Source: a virus. Taken from it: 64,000 nt of DNA. Below, in pieces: positions 731 through 42,771 of this stretch; position 1 is the first letter of the stretch, and each line of letters begins with the position of its first letter. The position numbers were made by a program, and so were the translations under genes. A model generated the notes under the pieces. That model searched no databases. It had not been told where the DNA came from and was given only the letters and a program-made list of their open reading frames with translations. The stretch is from positions 1 through 64,000 of IMG/VR virus record IMGVR_UViG_3300025120_014919. One strand, given 5' to 3'.

Positions 731-1519
731 CTATTCAACAAAATTCCACAAACCTTTTTCGTCTCCTTGCAGCATCAAATCAATAATACATGCATCTATA
801 GCTTTTCTTGTAGCAATTGAAACTCTTTCATTTCTTGCATAACCAATTTCAGCTTCTCCATAATCATTAAATTCACCTAAATTTAATTCATCAGTATCAA
901 AATACTTAAAAAACGTAGCTCCTGTACCGACACTTAATATAGTTTTACTAACCGTTGAAGATAATAGTATTTGACCTGAATTAACACTAACAAATCTCAT
1001 TGAAACTGTAACATTATCTTTTCTATATTGTTTAGAAAACCCAATACCTAAATAACTGGCTCCTATACCACCAGATACGATATTACTTTCGTATGAAATA
1101 ATACCACCTTCAACAATCATACCAGCAAATAATAAAGCTCCTATACTTTCTTCAGTATCATTAAAAGATTTCCTATTAGTTTTAATAATATTTCTTTCAT
1201 TTAATAAGTTAGCAAGATTTGCTCTCTCAACTACATTAAACCATTTACCATTACCTGCTTCTATTAATGATTCTATTACCCAAGCCTCTCCTCCTTGTGT
1301 AACTGCAGATGAAAAAGATGCATAATTATCAGCTGTTTTTCTTTGACCTGTTTTATCATCGAACGAATAGACCGCTACAAATATCGGTGCTTCCTTTACA
1401 TCTTTCATATCCCCCTGATCAATCATATATGGGGGTTTCTGCACCCAAGGTGGATTTTGAACAGGTGTTGAAACACATCCCACCATTAGTAGTAAAGTTA
1501 AACTAATTAAAATTTTCAT
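731..1519 (-). CDS. csgG: Curli secretion channel lipoprotein CsgG
   Basis: Lipobox MVGC; VAVYSFDDKTGQRK, SSAVTQG, WFNVVER, EGGIISYESN motifs; adjacent csgF. Confidence 0.93.
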   Translation of the reverse strand: MKILISLTLLLMVGCVSTPVQNPPWVQKPPYMIDQGDMKDVKEAPIFVAVYSFDDKTGQRKTADNYASFSSAVTQGGEAWVIESLIEAGNGKWFNVVERANLANLLNERNIIKTNRKSFNDTEESIGALLFAGMIVEGGIISYESNIVSGGIGASYLGIGFSKQYRKDNVTVSMRFVSVNSGQILLSSTVSKTILSVGTGATFFKYFDTDELNLGEFNDYGEAEIGYARNERVSIATRKAIDACIIDLMLQGDEKGLWNFVE

Positions 1520-1983
1520 TATGGGGTATCGGTCGATGCTGGTGGTATATACAATGAACCAATTGGTATAACTATACTAGTCGTTGAACCGTCAATTAAA
1601 TCGTTAATAGTAATATAAATTTGATCATCAGAAGATTTATACCAAGTTAATTCACTATCTTCAATTGCAAAAGTACCTGTATCTAACCCGTCATCTGCAA
1701 ATAATTGTTCTGTTACCTGTTTGGCTAATTCAGAATAAATTCTTGCTTGTAAACTTGATAAGAAAGTATTAACAGCAGATCTTTCATCAGCTAATTCAGC
1801 TTGTATTTGAGCTGATTCAATTTCATCTTCGATAGCTTTTTTTCGATTAAATGAAATTTGCTCTAAAGTTAATTTATGAGCAGAATAGCCTACCCCGGTA
1901 AATGTTGGTGATTTAAATTGAAATACAATCTCACTACCAAATAACATACAAGGTAGTAATAAACAAAGAAAAATATTTTTCAT
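1519..1983 (-). CDS. csgF: Curli assembly protein CsgF
   Basis: Signal peptide then SEIVFQFKSPTFTG (cf. CsgF FQFRNPNFGG), F..SLQARIYSELAKQ, C-terminal TSIVIP. Confidence 0.88.
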   Translation of the reverse strand: MKNIFLCLLLPCMLFGSEIVFQFKSPTFTGVGYSAHKLTLEQISFNRKKAIEDEIESAQIQAELADERSAVNTFLSSLQARIYSELAKQVTEQLFADDGLDTGTFAIEDSELTWYKSSDDQIYITINDLIDGSTTSIVIPIGSLYIPPASTDTP

Positions 1984-3316: not shown

Positions 3317-3967
3317 TTATTTAGTCACACCTTCTTTTGTTTTCCAGAAATATTCATCAGTATCTCCTAAACGATATTCGTATCCGCTTTCTACTTGATA
3401 ATATTTTGTACTAACTTTAAAGTCTGGCATCTTAGGTTTTTGCGGAGTTAAAGAATTATCGTAAACTCTCATTCTGTTATTTGGATATAACGCATATTGA
3501 CCGTTTTCTAATTCTAAACAGTTAAATGATTTATGTTCATCCGGTACTTCTGCTGTAGAATAATCAACACGGTCTGGGTCCGGGTGATAATTATCTAAAG
3601 TAAACATATATGTACCTTTAACAACTTGATGGCTTCTTGTAAAAACTTCGAAGTCCATCGAACCAATAAACTGCTTATATATCGCAACAACTCCATAGTC
3701 CATACAATTCCAAAATTGTAAATCTTGTAAAGGTAAATCTGGTTCAGGTGTTTCTGGAGAGGAAACAAATGCTGATATTGGTAGTTTATCAAAAAGAGCT
3801 CCATACTCCGGTAAGTATGTTTCAAAATAGAATGCTCTACCGGGTAATGATTTAGCACTAACCCAATGACCTTCTACAAATTCACCATGACCTTCTTCAC
3901 CGTCATGTAAATATTCTTTCCTAACATAAACTTTTGCATTAGGTAGATTACAAATTAATTCACTCAT
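3317..3967 (-). CDS. Hypothetical protein of a type common in marine T4-like phages
   Basis: Clean 216-aa ORF; TAAGTA promoter variant 6 nt upstream. Confidence 0.7.
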   Translation of the reverse strand: MSELICNLPNAKVYVRKEYLHDGEEGHGEFVEGHWVSAKSLPGRAFYFETYLPEYGALFDKLPISAFVSSPETPEPDLPLQDLQFWNCMDYGVVAIYKQFIGSMDFEVFTRSHQVVKGTYMFTLDNYHPDPDRVDYSTAEVPDEHKSFNCLELENGQYALYPNNRMRVYDNSLTPQKPKMPDFKVSTKYYQVESGYEYRLGDTDEYFWKTKEGVTK

Positions 3968-3989: not shown

Positions 3990-4730
3990 TTAAACTTTCA
4001 ATGCCATATCCCAGATAACCAATTGCAATCGAGGACTAAATTTAAAGTTATGCTTCTTACATAACTCAGCTACCATAGCTGATTTCTGGGTATGTTCCTC
4101 TCGACTACCTGCACAAGGCATTAACCATACATTATCTGGATTAACTAGGCCGTTATCAATATATTTTTCGAATAATTCCTTCTCATCTTCTTCGTTATTA
4201 ATAACAAACTTAAAACATTCATTATGACTATTATGGTGAGCTATAACTTCAGGTTTATACCGACGACCTTCAGGGTCTCCATTATTACTCATTTTAGGAG
4301 ATAAAGTAAAATCAGCATTAAAATCATCATACCACCTATCTAAAGGTTTAAGAGTACTATTAGATTCAAAATCTATTTTAGGTATAAACCCAAATCTTTC
4401 AACAAATGTATCCATCCATGTTAATAATCTTTTTTGCTGTAAAAGAGGTTCACCTCCAGTTATTTTTAATAACGCTCCTCTTTTTAATTCTTTATCAAAA
4501 CCATTATTTTCATAAAAGTTATTAAGCTCATCATACGTATACCGATTTTTTATAGACCATGATACAAATGAATCACAACCATGAGGGGAATCTGGAGAAG
4601 CAAATCCTTGACAAGTTAAGTTGCACATTGCAAGTCTCATAAAGACTGAAGGCCAACCAATATACTTACCTTCACCTTCTACTGTATAGAAAACATGATC
4701 ATCACTTAACGATAAAATATCTTTACTCAT
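3990..4730 (-). CDS. queE: 7-carboxy-7-deazaguanine synthase (radical SAM)
   Basis: FYTVEGEG..G.PSVFMRL, CxxxC-x11-C, ITGGEPLLQ, TLSPK, FSPRLQ. Confidence 0.9.
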   Translation of the reverse strand: MSKDILSLSDDHVFYTVEGEGKYIGWPSVFMRLAMCNLTCQGFASPDSPHGCDSFVSWSIKNRYTYDELNNFYENNGFDKELKRGALLKITGGEPLLQQKRLLTWMDTFVERFGFIPKIDFESNSTLKPLDRWYDDFNADFTLSPKMSNNGDPEGRRYKPEVIAHHNSHNECFKFVINNEEDEKELFEKYIDNGLVNPDNVWLMPCAGSREEHTQKSAMVAELCKKHNFKFSPRLQLVIWDMALKV

Positions 4731-5616: not shown

Positions 5617-5847
5617 TTCTTTTAAAGCTTGTTCAAGTCCTACTGAAGCTACACTTACACCTGGTTGAGGTTTTTCTTGATCATTTTGTAATGGAGCTAC
5701 AACCTCTTGCATTTTTGCAAATACATCTTGTTCTAATTTTACCTGTTGAGGGTCACGTTCTCTCATTACTGGTGCACCAGAAGATATACCTGTCTGGTTT
5801 ATTGAGGTTTTATTAACATTATGTTGATAAATATCCTCTAACCCCAT
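5578..5847 (-). CDS. Hypothetical protein
   Basis: 89-aa ORF overlapping the queD end; 3' overlap with phoH. Confidence 0.55.
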   Translation of the reverse strand: MGLEDIYQHNVNKTSINQTGISSGAPVMRERDPQQVKLEQDVFAKMQEVVAPLQNDQEKPQPGVSVASVGLEQALKELMNGVESLDDES

Positions 5848-6494
5848 GATGTTCCTTCAAATGGATTACTCATACCTTGAGTTACTTTATTATGTAATGG
5901 TGGAGTAGTTGGTTCATTTTTAACTTCGTCATTTTCTACTGCAATTGCTTCGATTTCCTTTTTCTTTAAATCAATATCAGTTAAAGTTCCTGTTTCTTGA
6001 TCAACCATACTACCAGGGTTTAAAGTAATATGACCAAAATCATGAGTTACATTTAATAGTTCCTCATATATAGCACTATTACCTTCATGTTCCCAAACTT
6101 CTACTTTAATAACTCTCACTCGATTGTTAGTTTGCTTAATTACAAACTTATTTGTATTTTCGTATACCCATTCAGCAGTTCTTTCAATACCAACCCCTTT
6201 ATCAGCAATACGTAAATCAATCATACCCTTCTCAGACATTAACTTAAATGTATCTAACTCTGGATCATCAGCAGCTACTACAGTTGTATGATCATATTGC
6301 TTCTCTAAAATATTTTTTATCTCTTTACAACCACCAAAATCGTATATCCAATTTTTATCATCTAATTCATCCGCTGTAAACCATAACTTACATTGTAATC
6401 TGTAACCATGAATTAATTTGCAATGACTATCTGCTCTCCACTGACGAAAGGCTGTACTACCCATCGGTATAATTTTTGTTGATACATATCTCAT
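5838..6494 (-). CDS. queD: 6-carboxytetrahydropterin synthase with C-terminal extension
   Basis: FRQWRADSHCKLIHGY, DFGG, DH, VEVWEH..NSA; start moved to ATG 6494 (TTGATT-N16-CATAAT-N6-ATG). Confidence 0.9.
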   Translation of the reverse strand: MRYVSTKIIPMGSTAFRQWRADSHCKLIHGYRLQCKLWFTADELDDKNWIYDFGGCKEIKNILEKQYDHTTVVAADDPELDTFKLMSEKGMIDLRIADKGVGIERTAEWVYENTNKFVIKQTNNRVRVIKVEVWEHEGNSAIYEELLNVTHDFGHITLNPGSMVDQETGTLTDIDLKKKEIEAIAVENDEVKNEPTTPPLHNKVTQGMSNPFEGTSWG

Positions 6495-6546
6495 ACTATT
6501 ATTATGATATAGATTCATCGAAAATCAACTTTTTTTTAAATAATAG

Positions 6547-6605: not shown

Positions 6606-7778
6606 TCACCTATATCTTTTTATAATATCCTCAAAATTTTCTTCGCTCGAATCTAAAGGTAACTCTTCTTGTGTAGGTGGCTGTAATTGATTTGCAAATC
6701 TGTATTGATTATCATTATTCTTATCTTTTAAAGTCATCATACCAGTTTCTTGATCTATATCTTGCAAAATATATGCTGCTCCACTAGTACCTTTAACTTC
6801 TTTACCTATTTGATCTCTAAATCTGTTAGCTTGTCTAATCATTTCTGATCTTTGTTCTTCTAAAGATCTACCAGCTTGTGATGCTGCAACTTTTATTTTA
6901 TCCATTACATTTCTAGGACTTAATTTTGGACTTCTTTTAGAACCTCCAGGTTTTCTTTGCTGGCTTTTCATACCTTCAGGTATATTATCAAAAAGAATTT
7001 TATGTACTTTTGGATCTTTTGTTTGACTTTGTGATTTAATATATTTTGTAAAGGAATTAACTTCATTAGGATGCTTTTTAAATATTGGTGTTAACTTATT
7101 TGTAGCTAAAGTTACAATTTCAACATCAGTTGGTTTACCATAATTATCATCTTGTAATAAAAATTTTATATAGATATTTTTATCTGCTTCATTTTTTGGA
7201 TCTCCAAAAAATTTACCAATTTCTGGAGCTGCTTGACTAGTACCATCTATAAAAGTTTTTTCAGTTTGTTGAGCTATTTCTTTTTTAGCCGCTTGTTTAC
7301 CTGCTTCAATATCAACACCTTTTATTGCAGCATCAACCTTTTTCATACCATTTTTATAATCTGCATCTTCAATTGAAGTTAACTGTTCACCTCTAGCTAA
7401 TTTATCATATGCATTCTTAAATTTAAGATCACCCATATAAACTTTTTTCAATTCTGGGCTCATTTCAGATTTTCCTTGTGTACCACCGCCTTTTAATTCT
7501 TGTTGTTGTTTTTTTGCTTTTAATTGTTCTTGTCTTGCTTGAGCAACTGCAGTATCACGTTCAGCACTTCTCATGTCATAAGCTCTTGTACCAGGTATCA
7601 TTGCTCTTACTGCATTAAATGCATTACCAAAACCACCACCACCGGTCGGTGCACTCGATTTTCTAATTTCTAAAATAGTTTTATTAAAATTACCTTTATT
7701 GAAAACTTTAGATATATTTGTGTTTTCATTTAAATTAAATTCTTTAGAAACTTTTTCAAATAATTCTTTATCTGTCAT
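6606..7778 (-). CDS. Hypothetical late protein, probable internal head protein
   Basis: TAAATA-N5-ATG; N-terminus MTDKELFEKVSKEFNLNEN; Lys/Gln-rich. Confidence 0.65.
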   Translation of the reverse strand: MTDKELFEKVSKEFNLNENTNISKVFNKGNFNKTILEIRKSSAPTGGGGFGNAFNAVRAMIPGTRAYDMRSAERDTAVAQARQEQLKAKKQQQELKGGGTQGKSEMSPELKKVYMGDLKFKNAYDKLARGEQLTSIEDADYKNGMKKVDAAIKGVDIEAGKQAAKKEIAQQTEKTFIDGTSQAAPEIGKFFGDPKNEADKNIYIKFLLQDDNYGKPTDVEIVTLATNKLTPIFKKHPNEVNSFTKYIKSQSQTKDPKVHKILFDNIPEGMKSQQRKPGGSKRSPKLSPRNVMDKIKVAASQAGRSLEEQRSEMIRQANRFRDQIGKEVKGTSGAAYILQDIDQETGMMTLKDKNNDNQYRFANQLQPPTQEELPLDSSEENFEDIIKRYR

Positions 7779-7811: not shown

Positions 7812-8864
7812 ATGTCCGAAAAAAATAAAAGTTATGAATGGTTAGGTGATGATGTAAGTGAAAGTGAACTTACAGGTGAGAAGGATATTATTGCAAAAGA
7901 AATAATGGGTGAAGAATATAGTAAGAGTTATTTTCCTCCTATTAGAGTTTATGATAATAAAGTTAAAGCTGATAGAAAGTATATTTCATCGTTACCTGAT
8001 TTACAAAATGGTCCATCAAGTTTAATTCAAGGTGCTGCAGTACCTATTCAACAAGTAGGTATACATAACTTTAAGTTACCTCTTACATATAAAAAGAGAG
8101 ATGGTAAAACTATTAATCTCGAAACTAGTGTAACTGGTAGTGTTAGTTTAGAAGCTCATAAGAAGGGTATTAATATGTCCCGTATTATGAGAAGTTTTTA
8201 TGATCATAAGGATGATCTATTTAGTATTGATAATATTAAAGATGTATTAGAGTCATATAGAGAAAATCTTAAATGCTTTGATTCAAGAATTATGCTTAAG
8301 ATTTCATACCCTATTAAGCAAACTAGTTTACGTAGTGGTTTAGAAGGTTATCAATATTATGATGTTGTATTTGAAGGTGATATTACTAAAGAAGGTAAAT
8401 TTAAAAAATATATTCACTTTGATTTTGTTTATTCATCTGCATGTCCTTGTAGTTTTGAATTAAGTGAACATGCTGAAAAGTATCGTAACCGTGCTACTGT
8501 ACCTCATAGTCAACGTAGTGTTGCAAGAGTTAGTGTACGCTTTGACGATATGTTATGGGTTGAAGATATACAAGAGTTATGCTTAGCAGCTCTTCAAACC
8601 GAGACTCAAGTAATGGTTAAGAGAGAAGATGAGCAAGCGTTTGCTGAATTAAATGGCTCTAATCTAAAGTTTGTTGAAGATGCAGTACGTTTAATGTATG
8701 AAAAGCTAAGTAGTGAATCCCGTATTAAAGACTTTAAGATTGTAGCATCTCATAATGAGAGTTTACATAGCCATAATGCAATATCAGTTATTGTAAAAGG
8801 GGTTGAAGGCGGCTTTTCTGCTGGTGTTGCTAGAGATGTATTTGAAACTACAGGTTTAAGATAA
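7812..8864 (+). CDS. folE2: GTP cyclohydrolase IB (FolE2)
   Basis: LPDLQ, IQQVGI, KGINMSRI, SACPCS, PHSQRS, VKREDEQAFA, FVEDAVR, ESLHSHNA; promoter TTGAAA-N16-TATAAT-N6-ATG. Confidence 0.93.
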   Translation: MSEKNKSYEWLGDDVSESELTGEKDIIAKEIMGEEYSKSYFPPIRVYDNKVKADRKYISSLPDLQNGPSSLIQGAAVPIQQVGIHNFKLPLTYKKRDGKTINLETSVTGSVSLEAHKKGINMSRIMRSFYDHKDDLFSIDNIKDVLESYRENLKCFDSRIMLKISYPIKQTSLRSGLEGYQYYDVVFEGDITKEGKFKKYIHFDFVYSSACPCSFELSEHAEKYRNRATVPHSQRSVARVSVRFDDMLWVEDIQELCLAALQTETQVMVKREDEQAFAELNGSNLKFVEDAVRLMYEKLSSESRIKDFKIVASHNESLHSHNAISVIVKGVEGGFSAGVARDVFETTGLR

Positions 8865-33659: not shown

Positions 33660-34085
33660 ATGAAAATATTAATTTTTGGGTTACCTGGAAGCGGGAAATC
33701 TACATTAGCTGAACAACTATGTAGACATTTAAATGGAGTATGGCTTAACGCTGATAAAATTCGTGAGGAATATAATGATTGGGACTTCTCAATGGATGGT
33801 AGAATTAGACAAGCAAACCGAATGAGATTTTTATCTGACGGAGTTGTAAAAGCTGGTAAAATTTCATTAGCTGATTTTGTTTGTCCGACTGAAAGAGCAC
33901 GTACTGAATTTGATGCTGATTTTACTATATGGATGCAAACAATAAAAGAAGGTCGATTTGAAGACACAAATAGAATATTTGAAATTCCTACTAGCTATGA
34001 TTATGTGGTTAAAGAGTGGTCAAAAGATACCCATGCAAAAATTGTACCTTTAATAAATGAATGGATAGAAAAAAATAATGTTTAA
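33660..34085 (+). CDS. cysC: Adenylylsulfate-kinase-like P-loop kinase (short)
   Basis: GLPGSGKSTLA, LNAD.IR, DFS..GR.RQ, DFVCP. Confidence 0.7.
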   Translation: MKILIFGLPGSGKSTLAEQLCRHLNGVWLNADKIREEYNDWDFSMDGRIRQANRMRFLSDGVVKAGKISLADFVCPTERARTEFDADFTIWMQTIKEGRFEDTNRIFEIPTSYDYVVKEWSKDTHAKIVPLINEWIEKNNV

Positions 34086-34449
34086 TAATCAAAAACCAAC
34101 AGTACAAATGTTAGGTAGGTGGCAACCTTGGCATAAAGGTCACACAGAATTATTTAAAAGAGCTTTGCAAAAAACTGGTCAAGTTGCTATAATGGTTAGG
34201 GATTTAGATGGAGAAGATAACCCATTCGACCATGCTAATGTATATGAAAATATTATTCAAGGTTTATCTAAAGAAGGCTTTACACATAAAAGAGAATATA
34301 CTATTATTACAGTACCAAATATAGTTGATATAAGCTATGGTAGAGGGGTAGGTTATACTTTTACTGAGCATGATTTAGGAAAAGATGTACATAACATTAG
34401 TGCTACGAAAATAAGAAAAAAATTAAGAGAAGAAGGTAAATTAAGTTGA
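34078..34449 (+). CDS. Small HxGH nucleotidyltransferase
   Basis: GRWQPWHKGH, NPF, ISATKIR. Confidence 0.8.
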   Translation: MFNNQKPTVQMLGRWQPWHKGHTELFKRALQKTGQVAIMVRDLDGEDNPFDHANVYENIIQGLSKEGFTHKREYTIITVPNIVDISYGRGVGYTFTEHDLGKDVHNISATKIRKKLREEGKLS

Positions 34450-36481: not shown

Positions 36482-37231
36482 ATGGTTAAAAAGAATAAAA
36501 TAGTAATTACGCTTAGCGGTGGTATGGATTCATCTGTTTTACTTTATAAAGCAGCTGAACAATATAAAGAAGTACACACCGTAACTTTCAATTATGGTCA
36601 ACGTCATAGTAAAGAGTTAGAAGCAGCTGAAAAGCAATTAGTAAATGCTAAGCATGACTTCCCTAACGTTACATTTACCAATAAATTATTAGACGTTACT
36701 TATATTAAGGATATAGCTGATACATCTTCCCTTACTAATGATAATATAGATACACCTGATGTAAAAGATATAATGGGTGAGGCTCAACCTAAATCATATG
36801 TACCATTCCGTAATTTAATGTTTTTGAGCATATTATTATCATATGCAGAAAAAATGGAAGCCGATGAAGTATGGTACGGTGCAGCAGAAGCAGATAGTTT
36901 AGCAGGTTATTGGGATGGTTCAGTACAGTTTGTCGATAAGATGAATCAGATTTGCTTGCTAAACCGTGAAGTAGATGTTAGAGTAAGGGCTCCCCTACTA
37001 AAAATGAGTAAAAAAGAGATTATTTTGAATGGAGTAGAGATTGGAGTCAATTTTGCTGATACATATACTTGTTATTCTGGGGAATATCCATGCGATGCAA
37101 ATAGCGCAAGTAGTGCTCTAAGATTAAAAGGGTTTGTAGACGCGGGACTACAAGATCCATTACGTTATAAACAGCAAGATAAGTTAGATTCAGTTTATAG
37201 AGATAATAATTGTAAATCTATATTAGATTAA
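36482..37231 (+). CDS. queC: 7-cyano-7-deazaguanine synthase
   Basis: LSGGMDS, FNYGQRH..E, YVPFRNLMFLS, YWD, PLL..SK, TYTCY. Confidence 0.92.
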   Translation: MVKKNKIVITLSGGMDSSVLLYKAAEQYKEVHTVTFNYGQRHSKELEAAEKQLVNAKHDFPNVTFTNKLLDVTYIKDIADTSSLTNDNIDTPDVKDIMGEAQPKSYVPFRNLMFLSILLSYAEKMEADEVWYGAAEADSLAGYWDGSVQFVDKMNQICLLNREVDVRVRAPLLKMSKKEIILNGVEIGVNFADTYTCYSGEYPCDANSASSALRLKGFVDAGLQDPLRYKQQDKLDSVYRDNNCKSILD

Positions 37232-38535
37232 TAACCCCATCTATTCATTCTTTCTTGAGAATGAGCATTTTGCATTTTTTGTCTATGCTGTGTTACTAGT
37301 TGCCGGTTAACTTCTTGTTGTGACATTGCAACTTGCTCTTCTTCTTCTGATTCAGACTTCTTTTTTCTAAGCTTACCTGTTACTGGGCATCTTTCTTCTT
37401 CTTCATCGTCTAAAGGTTCCATTTCACCCATTGTATCATCAGGGGCTGCGTCAGCAGGTGCATATTGATCATTAGCATCTTCATCTTTAGGTTCAATATC
37501 ATCATCATAATGATCTGCAACTGCTCTTGCATGATCCTGACCTGCTCTTTCTCGTTCTTTCTTCATTTCATCCTTTTCTTCGTTTTCTTCATCGTCACCT
37601 CCAAATGCAGCTTCTGCACGAGCTTTTTCATAGTCAGAAAGTTTACCATCGTTATCTAGATCAGCTTTCTTAAGATCGATTTCATCTTCTGATTTAGCTT
37701 GTATATTTCTACCATAACGATCAAATTTACCTTCTTCCCCTTCTGGAAAATCAGCAACTAATTTTTCTCTTTGACCCATTTCTATTTCACCACCAAATTT
37801 ATCAACTTGTTCCGTTTCACTAGGCTTAACGATAACAACTGATACAACATCGTCTTGTGATATATCGTCTAAATTAATTTTTTGACCTTTAAAAGAATTA
37901 AGTGTAACTCTATATTTTAATCCATCACTTACTACTGTGTATAAATCATTTTCACCAACTCCACCCTCGGAGTTTAAAGTCGTATCACTACCAAGATTCA
38001 ATTGTAAGGTTTCAAAACCTGTATCACCTTTCTTAAGACCTGCTTTTGCTGCTCCTCTTTCTCTTGTTGTAATTTTGACATCTGGTCTAGAAGCTAATGG
38101 TTTTGAAACATTAGCCATAATATTAATAGCATTTTGAATATCATCATCAGATAAATTTTCTAAATCTAATTCAGGATTTTCTTTTTGTAAATATCTAATT
38201 ACCTTAGTAGCAAAATATCTAGGGGTCATTGTACCTTTAAGATCTCTAATATCTTCCATACCCATTAGTTTTGCTCTAAGAGGATCAACAATCTTTTTAC
38301 CCCTTGCTTCTTCAACAATATGGTGCTGCCGGTCAGCATGCCCGAAGTTTGTATCGTCCATATATGTCGATGTACTCTCAGCGATAATTTCTGTATTTGA
38401 ACTCGGTTCAGCTATTGAAGGGTCCGTTATTTTTTTATTCTTTACTTCTTGTACAATATCGAAGTCTAGGTTATCCATGTAACTTGATGTGTTCTCGACG
38501 ATAATTTTTTTATTTGACCAGTTATGTAAACTCAT
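37228..38535 (-). CDS. Acidic late protein, probable internal head/core protein
   Basis: TAAATA-N5-ATG; duplicated II.E.TS.YMD motif; ADLDNDGKLSDYE EF-hand-like loop. Confidence 0.65.
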   Translation of the reverse strand: MSLHNWSNKKIIVENTSSYMDNLDFDIVQEVKNKKITDPSIAEPSSNTEIIAESTSTYMDDTNFGHADRQHHIVEEARGKKIVDPLRAKLMGMEDIRDLKGTMTPRYFATKVIRYLQKENPELDLENLSDDDIQNAINIMANVSKPLASRPDVKITTRERGAAKAGLKKGDTGFETLQLNLGSDTTLNSEGGVGENDLYTVVSDGLKYRVTLNSFKGQKINLDDISQDDVVSVVIVKPSETEQVDKFGGEIEMGQREKLVADFPEGEEGKFDRYGRNIQAKSEDEIDLKKADLDNDGKLSDYEKARAEAAFGGDDEENEEKDEMKKERERAGQDHARAVADHYDDDIEPKDEDANDQYAPADAAPDDTMGEMEPLDDEEEERCPVTGKLRKKKSESEEEEQVAMSQQEVNRQLVTQHRQKMQNAHSQERMNRWGY

Positions 38536-38582
38536 ATTATTATTTATTGATCTTTTCCATTTTTATACTATAATATAGTTAT

Positions 38583-39254
38583 ATGTGTGGTATATATTGT
38601 AGCAATGATTTGACTTCTTTCGAAGTTTTACAAGAAGCTAATAAAAAGCGGGGTAATTTTTCAACTGGCATATTTTATTGCTATAATAAAGCTAATTATA
38701 GAGTACTCAAGGAAAAGAATAATATAAACTGGAATAAAACTAAAATACCAAATCAAAAAGGGCATTTATATCTCGGCCATAACCAAGCCCCTACTGAAAC
38801 CGGTAGAGAATGGAATGAAGAAACGTCACACCCGTTTTGGGTTGGTGATTGGATAGTAGCTCATAATGGAGTGTTAACTAATTATGAGGAATTAATAGAT
38901 GAATATATACCAATGCATGATAACCCGGTAGATAGTAGCATAATACCAGCATTATTAGATGAATTTGAATATACACACGGTCCTTGTGAAGATGCTGAAA
39001 CTGAAGTACAAAATATATTATACACAATAGAAAAACTTAAAGGTACATTTGCTTTATGGATAGTGAACATAAAAACGATGAACATTTATATAGCAAGACA
39101 AGGTAGTACGTTGTTTTACAAAGACGCTAATATATCATCAATTAAGGGTCAAGGTTATAAAGAAGTATCACAAGGAGTACTTTACAACTATTCATATGAA
39201 GGTCTAACAGAGTTAGACGGATTTGTATATGACTCACCATTTTTAACATTATGA
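38583..39254 (+). CDS. Class II (Ntn) glutamine amidotransferase, stand-alone GAT domain
   Basis: MCGI (catalytic Cys2), RG, LGH.QAPT, HPF, VAHNGVL.N, VDS. Confidence 0.88.
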   Translation: MCGIYCSNDLTSFEVLQEANKKRGNFSTGIFYCYNKANYRVLKEKNNINWNKTKIPNQKGHLYLGHNQAPTETGREWNEETSHPFWVGDWIVAHNGVLTNYEELIDEYIPMHDNPVDSSIIPALLDEFEYTHGPCEDAETEVQNILYTIEKLKGTFALWIVNIKTMNIYIARQGSTLFYKDANISSIKGQGYKEVSQGVLYNYSYEGLTELDGFVYDSPFLTL

Positions 39255-39724
39255 ACATAAATTACGTAACAATTAACGAATGTAACGATTTAGATAAACT
39301 TAGATTTATTAAATTTATTTACGATAATACGGATTCATTTATATTGAATACGTTCGGCCATACTTGGTCAGGTAGAAACTGGTGGGAAAAATTTCCTATT
39401 GAAGTATGTGTAGACGATGCCGGCCAAGTTTTAGGTTTACATGCTTATACCACTAATGATAAGGCAAAAGGTACAATGAAAACATATTATATAGTTACCT
39501 CGAAGGAAGTAAGAGGTAAAGGTGTAGCAAAACTTTTAATTCTAAATGCAATTTACAAACATAAAGATAAAATTAAAAATTATTATGTTAATACAGATGT
39601 TAGAAGTAATGGTGTACAATTTTTTAAAAAATTATTAGGTGATAATTTTACTATTGAAAGTAACGATTTCAATTCCCAAGATATAATTTTTGAGGAACCT
39701 ATTTATAATATAATAGATGAGTAA
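39251..39724 (+). CDS. GNAT acetyltransferase
   Basis: IVTSKEVRGKGVAKLL motif A; N...FF. Confidence 0.75.
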   Translation: MNINYVTINECNDLDKLRFIKFIYDNTDSFILNTFGHTWSGRNWWEKFPIEVCVDDAGQVLGLHAYTTNDKAKGTMKTYYIVTSKEVRGKGVAKLLILNAIYKHKDKIKNYYVNTDVRSNGVQFFKKLLGDNFTIESNDFNSQDIIFEEPIYNIIDE

Positions 39725-40055
39725 ACTGAAGACAACTGGTAAACCTCGTCAGTTTTCAACTGGCGCACAACGAGATAATGCTGATGGTAAATTGCGTATG
39801 AGTTTATTACCTCATAATGCTTTAAATGGAGTAATGATGAGATATTTACAAGGAGCTGATACATACGGTGAAAATAATTGGAAGAAGGGTATGAAACATT
39901 CAGTTTTATATGATAGTGCAATGAGACATTTAATGCAAGATTTTACAGGTGATGATAGTGAAGATCATTTAGGAGCTGCTTTATGGAATATTATGGGTAT
40001 GATGTGGAATAGAGATAATAATCTTCATATGGATGATAGAAAAGAATATGAGTAG
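39717..40055 (+). CDS. dATP/dGTP diphosphohydrolase (DUF5664-like)
   Basis: FSTGAQRD..GK.RMSLLP, GA..YG.NNW.KG, SA.RHL, EDHL.AA.WN. Confidence 0.85.
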   Translation: MSKLKTTGKPRQFSTGAQRDNADGKLRMSLLPHNALNGVMMRYLQGADTYGENNWKKGMKHSVLYDSAMRHLMQDFTGDDSEDHLGAALWNIMGMMWNRDNNLHMDDRKEYE

Positions 40056-40707
40056 ATTTAAAATATATACTGCTACTAAGGATAAAAAAGAAGATACCTT
40101 ACTATATAAATCCCTTAATAAAAAATATCGCGATTTATCTGTACATTATGAAGAAAAAAATACTAAAAGTTTGCAAAGTTGTTATAACAGCTTTTTGGAA
40201 GACGCTCGTAGTAATAACGTTGATATCTGTGTGTTTATCCATGACGACGTTTCTATTAATTGCGACGATTTGTTGCATAGGTTGGACGATTATGGAAAAA
40301 TGTATACAGTTTTTGGTCTCGCAGGGGCTAGTACATGCAAGGTTAAAGAACCTGCTTTATGGCATCTTATGTCAGAAAGAAAGGACCAAAGAGGAAATGT
40401 TGCTCACGGACATCCTGACCAATATCAGTACACTTCGTTTGGTCCTATTCCAGGCCGTGTTTTGGTTGTTGATGGGGTCTTTATCGGTATTAATGTACAA
40501 ACTTTACCTACTAATGTAAAGTTTGATGAATCTTACCCATCTAAGTTTCATTATTATGATTTAGATTTTAGTCTAGAATGCAATAAAAATAATGTAAAAA
40601 TAGGGGTAGTTGATATACCAATAATACATTCAAGTCCTGGTTTGACTAACCCTAATAAAGAATTTTATGAAGGGCAAAAATATTTTATAAACAAATGGAA
40701 ACGGTAG
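40048..40707 (+). CDS. GT-A glycosyltransferase (Glyco_tranf_2_5/StrF-like)
   Basis: YN, VFIHDDV, GLAG, VDGVF, FDE..FHYYDLDFSL, H.S.G. Confidence 0.78.
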   Translation: MSRFKIYTATKDKKEDTLLYKSLNKKYRDLSVHYEEKNTKSLQSCYNSFLEDARSNNVDICVFIHDDVSINCDDLLHRLDDYGKMYTVFGLAGASTCKVKEPALWHLMSERKDQRGNVAHGHPDQYQYTSFGPIPGRVLVVDGVFIGINVQTLPTNVKFDESYPSKFHYYDLDFSLECNKNNVKIGVVDIPIIHSSPGLTNPNKEFYEGQKYFINKWKR

Positions 40708-41132
40708 TATTGGTTACAGGTGGATTTGACCCACTGCATTCCGGTCATTTAGCATATCTTAAAGCAGCTCGTAGGCTGGGAGATAAACTAATTGTTGGGG
40801 TTAATTCTGATTCTTGGTTGGAACGAAAAAAAGGTAAAAACTTTTTACCGTTAGCTGAACGTTTTGAAATAGTATCTGCTTTAAAATATGCAGATAATTG
40901 TATACTGTTTAATGATGATGATAATACTGCTATAGAGGCTATTAGAAATGTTATGATGTTATTTCCTTTTGATCGAATTATATTTGCAAATGGAGGGGAT
41001 AGAAAACAAGGTAATGTACCGGAGGAAGACCCTAATTTATTTCCAGAAAGAGAAATAATTTTTCAGTATGGTGTAGGTGGAGCAGATAAAAAAAATAGTA
41101 GTAGTTGGATATTGCAAAGATGGGAAAAATAA
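40695..41132 (+). CDS. Cytidylyltransferase (RfaE2/TagD-like)
   Basis: TGGFDPLHSGH, GVNSD.WL.RKKG, FANGGDR, KKNSSSWIL. Confidence 0.88.
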   Translation: METVVLVTGGFDPLHSGHLAYLKAARRLGDKLIVGVNSDSWLERKKGKNFLPLAERFEIVSALKYADNCILFNDDDNTAIEAIRNVMMLFPFDRIIFANGGDRKQGNVPEEDPNLFPEREIIFQYGVGGADKKNSSSWILQRWEK

Positions 41133-41431
41133 CAGAAACGAGGTGGGGTAGCTACAATGTTTTATTTGATCGTAATGGTTATAAAATAAAAACTTTACAT
41201 ATTAGTCCAGGTAAATCTTTAAGCGATCAACGTCATTTTAAAAGAAGTGAGCATTGGTTTATATTAGAAGGTGAATTATGCATTAACGGTGACCTATATC
41301 ATAAAAATGATTTTATCAATATACCAGTTGAGAATTGGCATAAACCAGCTAATATTAGTAATAAAGAATGCATTATTTGTGAAATACAATACGGTGAAGA
41401 GTGCATTGAAGAAGATATTGAAAGAAGATAA
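41120..41431 (+). CDS. Mannose-6-phosphate isomerase-type cupin
   Basis: RWG.Y, LS.QRH.KRSEHW, WH, EIQYG..C.EEDIER. Confidence 0.85.
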   Translation: MGKITETRWGSYNVLFDRNGYKIKTLHISPGKSLSDQRHFKRSEHWFILEGELCINGDLYHKNDFINIPVENWHKPANISNKECIICEIQYGEECIEEDIERR

Positions 41432-42771
41432 TGGAAGATATAGGTAGATTAAATTTAGATTATTATGAGCAGGTTATAGTTTATAAGAGCTTGACTAACG
41501 AAAGTTATTTAACTCAAATTATAGACCATATAAAGCCGGATTATTTTAATGATAAAAATATTAAGACTGTCTTTAGTTTAATAACCAATTTTTATATTAA
41601 AAGGCAAAGTATACCTACTATTACTGAATTAAAGTCATACTTAATTAATGATGAACTTAAGGAAAGTTTTAGATCTGTTGTAAAGAATTTTCCTAATATT
41701 GATAAGAACTTTAATGATGAAGAGTTAACTTCTAATACTGAACGGTTCTTAAAAGAAAGAGCAATATATAATACAATGTTATCTGTTGCCGAGGACGTTA
41801 GTAAAGGTGAAGTTAATACAAGTTTTATTTTAGATAGTTTCGAAAAAAGCTGTAACGTTAATTTAAAGGAAGAGATAGGTTTAGATTTATTTGAAAATAT
41901 TGATAAGGTTGTAGATGATCTAAACGTAGACCAACCTACAATATCTTCTGGTTGGAAATGGTTAGATGATAAGATAGAGGGAGGCTTCTTACAAAATGGT
42001 AGATCGTTGTACGTATTTGCTGGTGAAGCTAATGTTGGTAAATCTATATTTTTAGGTAATATAGCTTGTAATATAGCTTCTAAAGGCAAGACGGTTTTAG
42101 TTATAAGCCTTGAAATGTCAGAGATGATATACGCAAGAAGGTTATCATCTAATATAACTAGAATACCAATGAGAGAATTAAAAGGTGCTGGTCAATCTTT
42201 ATCATCTCAAATAAAGAGTTATAATAATGGTAAACCTAATAGTAAGATTTTAATTAAAGAGTTTCCACCTAGTACTGTTACGCCGCAGAATATACAAGGC
42301 TATATTACAGAATTAAAAAATAGAGGTATTAAAGTTGATGCAGTGGTACTTGATTATTTAAATTTGTTAAAAAGTCCTCTTGGTGATAACTCTTATGAAA
42401 GGGTTAAGCATGTTGCAGAAGGTATTCGTGCTTTAAGTTATGTTTTTGAATGCCCGTTTATTTCTGCTACTCAGTTAAATAGATCTGGTTACGATGAAGC
42501 AAACCCTGGTTTAGATACGATATCAGAATCGATTGGAATGGCTGCTACTGCTGACTGTATTTTCAGTATATTCCAAGACGATGAAGATAAAGAATTAGGT
42601 ATAGTTAAAATGGGTATGATGAAAAATAGATATGGTGCTAATTATGGTCATACAGCATTACGGTTAGATTATGATACCTTAACTATTTCTGAAGATGAGA
42701 CACTAAACGTTGATGATGAAGGTAGTGAGATGTCTGATTTAACTAATACTCTTAACATGTTGAGTAATTAA
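41431..42771 (+). CDS. gp41: Replicative DnaB-like helicase gp41
   Basis: GEANVGKS, SLEM, IKEFP, DYLNL, SATQLNRSG, KNRYG. Confidence 0.93.
   Translation: MEDIGRLNLDYYEQVIVYKSLTNESYLTQIIDHIKPDYFNDKNIKTVFSLITNFYIKRQSIPTITELKSYLINDELKESFRSVVKNFPNIDKNFNDEELTSNTERFLKERAIYNTMLSVAEDVSKGEVNTSFILDSFEKSCNVNLKEEIGLDLFENIDKVVDDLNVDQPTISSGWKWLDDKIEGGFLQNGRSLYVFAGEANVGKSIFLGNIACNIASKGKTVLVISLEMSEMIYARRLSSNITRIPMRELKGAGQSLSSQIKSYNNGKPNSKILIKEFPPSTVTPQNIQGYITELKNRGIKVDAVVLDYLNLLKSPLGDNSYERVKHVAEGIRALSYVFECPFISATQLNRSGYDEANPGLDTISESIGMAATADCIFSIFQDDEDKELGIVKMGMMKNRYGANYGHTALRLDYDTLTISEDETLNVDDEGSEMSDLTNTLNMLSN

Follow-up and report, generated by a model that had tools for sequence, protein, structure and literature searches.

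Eight 7-deazaguanine bases are known in DNA, none of them acetylated or glycosylated (PMC10516641). In Flavobacterium phage immuto_2-6A, 100% of the guanine (G) is formyl-preQ1 (fdPreQ1), preQ1 being 7-aminomethyl-7-deazaguanine; Cellulophaga phage phiSM contains mdPreQ1, formed with the methyltransferase DpdM (PMC10516641); and in Enterobacteria phage 9g a Gat-QueC fusion together with DpdA gives DNA with the archaeosine nucleoside dG+ (PMC6884629). Here we compare these systems with a gene block of an uncultured marine phage. The window that we analysed is a stretch of 64,000 nucleotides (nt), positions 1 to 64,000 of IMG/VR record IMGVR_UViG_3300025120_014919, which form the first 64 kb of a viral contig of 105.6 kb. 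Between the genes for UvsX and a DnaB-type helicase, the window encodes QueC, a stand-alone glutaminase (Gat), an N-acyltransferase of the GNAT family, a DUF5664 protein, a GT-A glycosyltransferase, a nucleotidyltransferase and a cupin. We lean towards reading this block as the tailoring section of a DpdA3-type system by which a 7-deazaguanine takes the place of guanine. Overall, it would be a variant of the known DpdA3/fdPreQ1 system in which tailoring is most likely by acylation.

Relatives of the window phage are the source of the evidence for acylation. About 330 loci were fetched in six scans of IMG/VR, in which at least 540 viral contigs carry GT-A and at least 554 carry DpdA3, and families were assigned with Pfam, PHROG and NCBIfam profiles. 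Gene arrangements were scored at the 121 distinct Gat loci whose downstream sequence was long enough. The slot directly after Gat is occupied by GNAT at 20 of these loci and by the formyltransferase DpdN at 15, and no locus has both acyltransferases. The gene orders are Gat-GT-A (85 loci), Gat-GNAT-DUF5664-GT-A (17), Gat-GNAT-GT-A (3), Gat-DpdN-DUF5664-GT-A (15) and, at one locus, Gat alone. Within the subclade that carries acyltransferases the slot is never empty. In a relative with a UvsX 96% identical to that of the window (L015), the position of GNAT is taken by an open reading frame (ORF) of formyltransferase family PF00551, whose product aligns along its whole length, at 42% identity (E = 2e-44), with immuto_2-6A protein YP_010114479, named DpdN and predicted to be a preQ1 formyltransferase (PMC10516641). 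The N-H-D catalytic residues are invariant in the family.

The two states have been exchanged repeatedly. On a maximum-likelihood tree of Gat they interleave with at least seven changes, of which at least three to four are forced by well-supported branches alone, and the Gat sequences of one DpdN locus (L202) and one GNAT locus (L014) are almost identical. The distribution of DpdN elsewhere in these genomes follows the same pattern. In two GNAT-bearing long contigs, G001 (185 kb, 88% complete) and G009 (39% complete), the genes for DpdA3, a kinase and QueF abut, and no DpdN match was found on either of them or on the contig of the window; in the GNAT-less G005, G006 and G007, DpdN lies beside the kinase. 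At 52 loci with a DpdA3 at least 67% identical to that of G001, DpdA3 abuts the kinase with no DpdN there, and at more distant DpdA3 loci DpdN stands between the two. Each genome thus seems to have exactly one N-acyltransferase, and the two kinds seem to be swapped at a single position among phages that are otherwise almost identical. Most simply, an exclusive slot would mean that GNAT does the job of DpdN with another acyl group. Since GNAT sits where sister phages have DpdN, we regard it as an analogue of DpdN and not as a member of its family; most likely it would N-acylate preQ1, leading to DNA with acetyl-preQ1. A preliminary description of the window, made from its sequence, had proposed an acylated or glycosylated 7-deazaguanine, and the finding of GNAT in the exact slot of a DpdN orthologue, the two being mutually exclusive, makes acylation the best reading now.

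The remaining parts of such a system are encoded by the lineage. The window itself has the complete preQ0 gene set (FolE2, QueD, QueE and QueC). G001 is collinear with the window at 80-86% nucleotide identity, position 1 of the window corresponding to about 59.8 kb of G001, and encodes DpdA3 at 22.8 kb, about 36 kb before the point at which the contig of the window starts (phrog_19058, E = 1e-68; 51% identical to immuto_2-6A DpdA3 and 49% to DpdA3 of Campylobacter phage CP220). Directly downstream are an AAA_28 (NadR-type) kinase and a bimodular QueF that is 46% identical to immuto_2-6A QueF and has intact ESKS-KLY and catalytic Cys motifs (TIGR03138, 239 bits, below the cut-off of 293). DpdA3 is also present in four of five further long contigs of the clade. 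With DpdA3, the kinase and QueF, the lineage is therefore equipped with the same set of parts as immuto_2-6A. One of the long contigs, G005 (196.9 kb, 93% complete), carries portions of the DpdA3 gene at both ends (C1:6-359; 188269-189063) and may be a complete genome that is terminally redundant or circularly permuted.

On the 105.6 kb contig of the window, about 50% complete, a search with PHROG families found no DpdA3, and no QueF was found on this half genome either. Comparison of phiST DpdA3, DpdL and MazG with all ORFs of the contig by phmmer gave noise only. The Pfam TGT model (PF01702) matched nothing in the contig or its relatives, and nothing in Vibrio phage 2.275.O either. We consider the absence of a transglycosylase uninformative, because Pfam TGT misses known phage DpdA subfamilies and the contig covers half a genome; DpdA3 is known to escape this model (PMC10516641), and the PHROG families of phiST DpdA3 were used in its place. 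We also considered as a DpdA candidate the 390-amino-acid (aa) ORF at 6606-7778 on the minus strand, between QueD and FolE2, and rejected it, as it is Lys-rich, of low complexity and without a family match.

A P-loop kinase (AAA_28, NadR/RNK-like) follows DpdA3, directly or after DpdN, in CP220, immuto_2-6A and most of the fetched marine loci that have both genes (L031:8315-10578 in G001; L119:8992-11918 in immuto_2-6A; L121:13543-16036 in CP220; and L218-L281). In cultured phages it is annotated as a thymidylate kinase. The resemblance to immuto_2-6A thus includes this kinase as well as DpdA3 and QueF, the QueC without zinc cysteines and with the same SASS motif, and the DpdN orthologue of the sister phages. 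The differences are that the window and 19 other loci have GNAT in place of DpdN, at a different locus, with acetyl or another acyl group predicted where immuto_2-6A has formyl; that the marine clade adds Gat, GT-A and, in a subclade, DUF5664, for which immuto_2-6A gives no tblastn match; and that the window uses FolE2, not FolE. In phiSM, as proposed for the window phage, a small group is placed on the aminomethyl nitrogen of preQ1, but by a methyltransferase instead of GNAT, with a different group, and at a low level of modification.

The GNAT protein was modelled with AlphaFold2 (predicted local distance difference test score, pLDDT, 89.5), and the model matches many GNATs in Foldseek at a probability of 1.0. 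Its closest solved folds are small-molecule amine N-acetyltransferases, not sugar N-acetyltransferases. The acyl-CoA loop RGKGVA is intact (pattern R/Q-x-x-G-x-G/A), G91 being invariant and R88 and A93 nearly so, and the gene overlaps Gat by 4 nt and DUF5664 by 8 nt, which points to translational coupling. Alternatively, GNAT could be unrelated to DNA: DpdN would have been lost, the DNA would carry plain dPreQ1 or another known deazaguanine, and GNAT would acetylate something else, be it a host or phage protein, a polyamine, a sugar or a molecule resembling an antibiotic. We regard this as unlikely, although several observations agree with it. The family is lineage-confined, with no match to GNAT (or to GT-A) in a tblastn search of 50,697 cultured-phage records; its fold matches are generic, as were the clusters retrieved from the ESM Atlas; and dPreQ1 genomes without further tailoring are known (PMC6884629). 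Arguing the other way, the slot is always filled in the subclade, its sole alternative occupant is itself an N-acyltransferase, one dedicated to the tailoring of preQ1, repeated swaps occur between backgrounds that are nearly identical, and GNAT is coupled to both of its neighbours by gene overlaps.

A DpdA3-type system with preQ1 acylated by GNAT, probably as acetyl-preQ1, is on balance the explanation that we favour, although there are arguments against it. Both DpdA3 and QueF are known from relatives only, the contig of the window being about half a genome. The role of DpdN is a published prediction and not a reconstituted activity (PMC10516641). Because the GNAT family is found only inside one viral lineage, the slot swap is the sole link between GNAT and preQ1, and the GNAT-bearing phages might carry unmodified dPreQ1. 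Profile scores place Gat closer to the glutaminase domains of GlmS than to the 9g Gat-QueC family, and the tie of GT-A to Gat and QueC is one of synteny within a single viral family.

Two features of QueC and Gat stood out in the preliminary description. The first, the loss of C-terminal zinc-ligand cysteines from QueC, is real: compared with phage 9g Gat-QueC and the QueC proteins of CP220 and Vibrio phage 2.275.O, the motif keeps two of four cysteines. The loss is clade-wide, with two of four kept in the subclade of the window and one of four in the wider clade, and immuto_2-6A QueC keeps none. It is not diagnostic of altered chemistry, because immuto_2-6A QueC lacks all four and a preQ1-derived base is nevertheless made, the DNA being 100% formyl-preQ1 (PMC10516641). 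The earlier interpretation was thus right in kind, in that it proposed a new tailoring of 7-deazaguanine and named acylation, and wrong in this clue.

The second feature, a split Gat-QueC, is a fair structural description. QueC aligns to residues 250-471 of phage 9g Gat-QueC and Gat to residues 22-179 (E = 1e-5), so that the two are co-linear with the two halves of the fusion; as a fusion in the strict sense the arrangement fails, since 1.35 kb and an opposite-strand gene separate the two. Gat residues C2, H94-N95-G96 and D117 are at least 95% conserved among 121 sequences, which means that the catalytic Cys and the Asn-Gly oxyanion hole are present, and the protein matches the GlmS N-domain (NF001484, E = 5e-13, residues 1-177). 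A stand-alone Gat adjoins QueC also in Vibrio phage 2.275.O and in the L232/L234/L237/L239 lineage, whose cluster has DpdA3, DpdN and QueF besides, and in the distant locus L198 QueC-Gat is kept without GT-A. Given this adjacency in other lineages and its persistence without GT-A, we think that Gat is probably the glutaminase partner of QueC, supplying ammonia for the steps from 7-carboxy-7-deazaguanine (CDG) to preQ0 (7-cyano-7-deazaguanine) in the style of asparagine synthetase. Synthesis of archaeosine, or a role alongside the glycosyltransferase, seems to us less likely for Gat.

The archaeosine-type product implied by a split archaeosine synthase deserves separate consideration, since in phage 9g the co-linear Gat-QueC fusion, acting with DpdA, does give dG+ (PMC6884629). 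For the window phage we think it improbable. A true QueF is encoded in the lineage, as is DpdN in relatives, and these enzymes consume preQ0 and preQ1; Gat accompanies QueC in other clusters that contain QueF and DpdN; and the DpdA3 phages analysed to date carry dADG, dDG or fdPreQ1, not dG+ (PMC10516641). The two systems share a glutaminase and a QueC PP-loop synthetase, homologous and co-linear in both halves, but in the window these are two genes split by a late gene, the transglycosylase of the lineage is DpdA3 as opposed to the DpdA1 of 9g, and QueF would lead on to preQ1 where 9g stops at G+.

DUF5664 occurs only in the subclade that also has a slot acyltransferase. Activity has been demonstrated for one homologue only, a stand-alone DUF5664 protein from Arthrobacter phage Wayne that breaks dATP, dGTP and dUTP down to monophosphates (PMC12884076), and the protein of the window is a probable deoxynucleoside triphosphate (dNTP) pyrophosphohydrolase. 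Taken alone this proves little, because the family is common in phages without que genes or with ordinary DNA. Independent DpdA3 clusters repeatedly contain NTP pyrophosphatases with different folds (MazG/dUTPase-like in phiST, PRA-PH/MazG in L244, dCTP-deaminase/dUTPase in L237), and this recurrence makes pool editing a reasonable role. The editing of the dGTP pool that the preliminary description had envisaged is thus plausible. Phages with 2-aminoadenine (Z) offer a parallel (DUF5664, MazZ and DutZ; PMC12884076): theirs is likewise a stand-alone PF18909 protein of about 110 aa, which serves to eliminate the canonical dNTP competing with the modified base. Their system replaces A, whereas the DUF5664 of the window accompanies a G-replacement system. 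Together, the kinase and the recurrent dNTP pyrophosphatases hint that DpdA3 systems may work partly at the nucleoside or nucleotide level and not just after replication.

GT-A follows Gat, directly or after the slot genes, at 120 of the 121 loci. Co-occurrence of these genes was a check that the preliminary description had proposed: adjacency of Gat and GT-A extends over more than 100 of the fetched loci, and GNAT and DUF5664 accompany the que genes among close relatives only. The AlphaFold2 model of GT-A (pLDDT 94.3) has UDP-bound majastridin as its top solved match (2qgi, template modelling (TM) score 0.73), resembles generic GT-A enzymes as well, and contains an HDD (DXD) motif, H70-D71-D72, that is invariant in 33 sequences. 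Sequence searches of solved structures with GNAT, GT-A, DUF5664 and Gat returned nothing useful. The genes between DUF5664 and GT-A vary among close relatives, some of which have none. Two loci have a cytidylyltransferase fusion of about 365 aa there (L004:7522-8625; L007:11466-12560), and L015 a GDP-mannose 4,6-dehydratase with an epimerase (L015:11531-13409). These variable sugar-nucleotide genes beside GT-A suggest that the donor sugar is strain-dependent.

GT-A may place a sugar from a strain-variable nucleotide sugar on the deazaguanine side chain, a step compatible with acylation. We hold this to be possible but doubtful. In its favour are the GT-A position after Gat, which persists down to 35% identity, the overlapping early operon that GT-A shares with DpdN or GNAT, and the variability of the adjoining nucleotide-sugar genes, which may be the fusion, the dehydratase and epimerase, or the nucleotidyltransferase and cupin. 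A helix-hairpin-helix DNA-binding ORF precedes Gat in 52 wider-clade loci. No ThyA-family (PF00303) or Tet/JBP (PF12851) enzyme that would provide a hydroxymethylpyrimidine acceptor was matched in G000, G001 (88% complete) or G005 (93% complete), the PF12851 search having been run without a positive control. The T4 beta-gt gene likewise adjoins uvsX.

Counter to this, all of the support comes from synteny within a single viral family, GT-A is missing from other DpdA3 clusters, and L198 has QueC-Gat without it. An acylated aminomethyl group is no obvious acceptor, and several other sugar operons of the phage may serve virion or host glycans. The structural likeness of GT-A to TET-associated DNA glycosyltransferases, which rank 31 and 42 among matches in BFVD (E about 3e-6, TM scores 0.52-0.56), is no better than to generic GT-A proteins. 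With the T-even phages, which have glucosylated hydroxymethylcytosine, and with the GT-A DNA glycosyltransferases of 5-hydroxymethylcytosine phages (bioRxiv 10.1101/2023.12.21.572611), the lineage of the window shares a glycosyltransferase in the early replication module and strain-variable sugar genes; it differs in having no hydroxymethylpyrimidine-forming enzyme found and no specific structural likeness, and DNA is a putative acceptor.

The genes from Gat to cupin could also form an amino-sugar pathway for a virion or host glycan that merely lies beside queC. The similarity of Gat to the GlmS glutaminase domain, the resemblance of the cupin and the nucleotidyltransferase to sugar-nucleotide enzymes and the wealth of sugar operons in the genome agree with such a role, yet we find it still less probable than archaeosine. 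No sugar isomerase or synthase domain is present to partner Gat, DpdN substitutes for GNAT in the same slot, and Gat stays beside QueC where GT-A is absent (L198) and in unrelated lineages. Several other lineages have homologues of the cupin (31-38% identity) a short way upstream of DpdA3, and a PF01467 gene follows QueF in the unrelated L244 cluster, which runs FolE, an ORF, cupin, MazG-like, DpdA3, DpdN, kinase, QueF, cytidylyltransferase-like. Cupin, nucleotidyltransferase and NTP pyrophosphatase thus recur in a DpdA3 cluster that has no GT-A homologue by tblastn. From this gene order, the cupin and the nucleotidyltransferase may serve deazaguanine metabolism rather than sugar supply.

For the DpdA3-type system with GNAT-acylated preQ1, we propose the following pathway. 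FolE2, QueD, QueE and QueC would convert GTP to preQ0, with the stand-alone Gat, as the split form of Gat-QueC, passing glutamine-derived ammonia to QueC. QueF, seen in the collinear relative, would reduce preQ0 to preQ1. GNAT would then acylate preQ1 at its aminomethyl nitrogen, the group being most likely an acetyl donated by acetyl-CoA; in sister phages and in immuto_2-6A, DpdN would carry out the formyl version of this step. We infer both the substrate and the acyl donor of GNAT, and acylation may occur on the free base, as in this order of steps, or on DNA. DpdA3, also seen in the collinear relative, would insert the base into DNA, giving 7-(acetylamino)methyl-7-deazaguanine, which would probably replace most or all of G. 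DUF5664 would convert dGTP (and dATP) to the monophosphate and so lessen competition from G. GT-A and the strain-variable nucleotide-sugar genes could add a glycosylation step, the acceptor of which may or may not be the modified base.

A bolder combination, which we consider a long shot, is that the abundant marine group replaces all G with N-acyl-preQ1, formyl or acetyl by cassette exchange among nearly identical phages, that in the window phage the acetylated base is in addition glycosylated by GT-A with a strain-specific sugar, and that the modification is made at the nucleotide level and not after replication. Synthesis at the nucleotide level would account for two features, the P-loop kinase that invariably comes after DpdA3 and the recurrence of dGTP pyrophosphatases.

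If present, acetyl-preQ1 would probably be a DNA base not yet described, the ninth of its kind. The literature that we searched contains no report of an acetylated or glycosylated 7-deazaguanine in DNA, acetyl-preQ1 included; none is listed in the published survey (PMC10516641), nor in the preliminary description. Published m/z values are 296.1 for dPreQ1 and 324.1 for fdPreQ1, from which the acetyl-dPreQ1 nucleoside is predicted by arithmetic at dPreQ1 + 42 Da, or about m/z 338 for [M+H]+. The swap would mean that the decoration of a replaced base is exchanged between near-identical phage genomes, as would be expected where modification-dependent nucleases of the host exert pressure. Marine viromes contain this lineage widely, and fully G-substituted DNA in them could bias sequencing-based surveys. 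The kinase and the dNTP pyrophosphatases near DpdA3 bear on how DpdA3 reaches 100% replacement.

The window phage is T4-like, encoding gp23, gp32 and UvsX, with a GC content of about 30%; its contig is about 50% complete by CheckV. Cultured phages are distant, the top UvsX matches being cyanomyophages at 34% identity. All ORFs of the block are present as first described and their family assignments hold (Table 1). So does the description of an overlapping operon that runs into the helicase: neighbouring plus-strand genes share 1-28 nt all the way from Gat to DnaB. The order UvsX, QueC, opposite-strand ORFs, Gat, GT-A, helicase is kept down to 47% UvsX identity and 35% identity of Gat and GT-A. 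Other genes of the block are nested additions, GNAT occurring only at UvsX identities of at least 75% and DUF5664 only at 83% or above, and the nucleotidyltransferase and cupin are sporadic among relatives. The top match of the nucleotidyltransferase is RfaE domain II.

Table 1. Block genes and other deazaguanine genes of the window, with positions in the 64,000-nt stretch
Feature	Position	Strand	Family evidence
QueE-like radical SAM enzyme (CDG synthase)	3990..4730	-	phrog_2076 E 4.5e-44
QueD-like 6-pyruvoyl-tetrahydropterin synthase family	5838..6518	-	PF01242 E 3e-19; phrog_2389 E 6e-36
FolE2 (GTP cyclohydrolase IB)	7812..8864	+	PF02649 E 8e-73
QueC, variant with degenerate zinc site	36482..37231	+	PF06508 E 1e-52; TIGR00364 162.3 bits (cut-off 150.3)
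Inserted late gene, acidic low-complexity, 435 aa	37228..38535	-	no Pfam or PHROG family
Stand-alone class-II (Ntn) glutaminase Gat	38583..39254	+	GATase_6/7; N-terminal Met-Cys
GNAT N-acyltransferase	39251..39724	+	PF00583 24.9 bits (cut-off 20.7)
DUF5664, probable dNTP pyrophosphohydrolase	39717..40055	+	PF18909 E 5e-19, 68.5 bits (cut-off 27); positions 3-99 of 99
GT-A glycosyltransferase	40033..40707	+	PF13712 E 7e-11, 42.7 bits (cut-off 27)
Cytidylyl/adenylyltransferase-like nucleotidyltransferase	40695..41132	+	PF01467 E 3e-15; RfaE domain II TIGR02199 E 6e-20, below cut-off
Cupin, mannose-6-phosphate isomerase C-terminal type	41105..41431	+	PF01050 E 3e-17
DnaB-type helicase	41431..42771	+	

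The gene inserted between QueC and Gat has TAAATA-N5-ATG at its start, and is therefore taken as a T4-type late gene; it is outside the deazaguanine pathway. In relatives the gap holds one to four opposite-strand ORFs. A scan for sigma-70-like promoters found sites in the block region no more often than in shuffled background. One weak candidate, TTGATC-N16-TATAAT (window 38547-38585), ends 8 nt before the start codon of Gat and would give a nearly leaderless early transcript. The helix-hairpin-helix gene of the wider clade is a small plus-strand ORF just before Gat (HHH_3, ComEA-like; for example L034:8889-9233 and L049:5115-5507), and it is absent in the subclade that contains the window.

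Further genes were seen near the que genes of the window and of other loci. Beside QueE is a 216-aa ORF (window 3317-3967, minus strand) that matches phrog_3704 'ferredoxin' (E = 1.6e-109) without a Pfam match; a plain ferredoxin would be of another size, and the protein may assist QueE as a radical-SAM enzyme. L198 has a 523-aa carbamoyltransferase of the NodU/CmcH type between UvsX and QueC (L198:4863-6434), and weaker homologues (28-33%) lie near que genes in other lineages, for example in L223, L229, L244 and L276; the L198 type may be a further option for preQ1 tailoring. In L237 a gene for Tad3, an inhibitor of type I Thoeris (PF25185, E = 9e-40), lies between QueF and QueC of the deazaguanine cluster (L237:9993-10463).

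Elsewhere, the window encodes homologues of the curli-secretion proteins CsgG and CsgF (731-1983, minus strand; PF03783, E = 1e-48; PF10614, E = 2e-16). Two adjoining plus-strand ORFs (33660-34449) match the N- and C-terminal halves of phrog_10255 'kinase', the first half being APS-kinase-like and the second cytidylyltransferase/ATP-sulfurylase-like, which points to a split gene or a frameshift.

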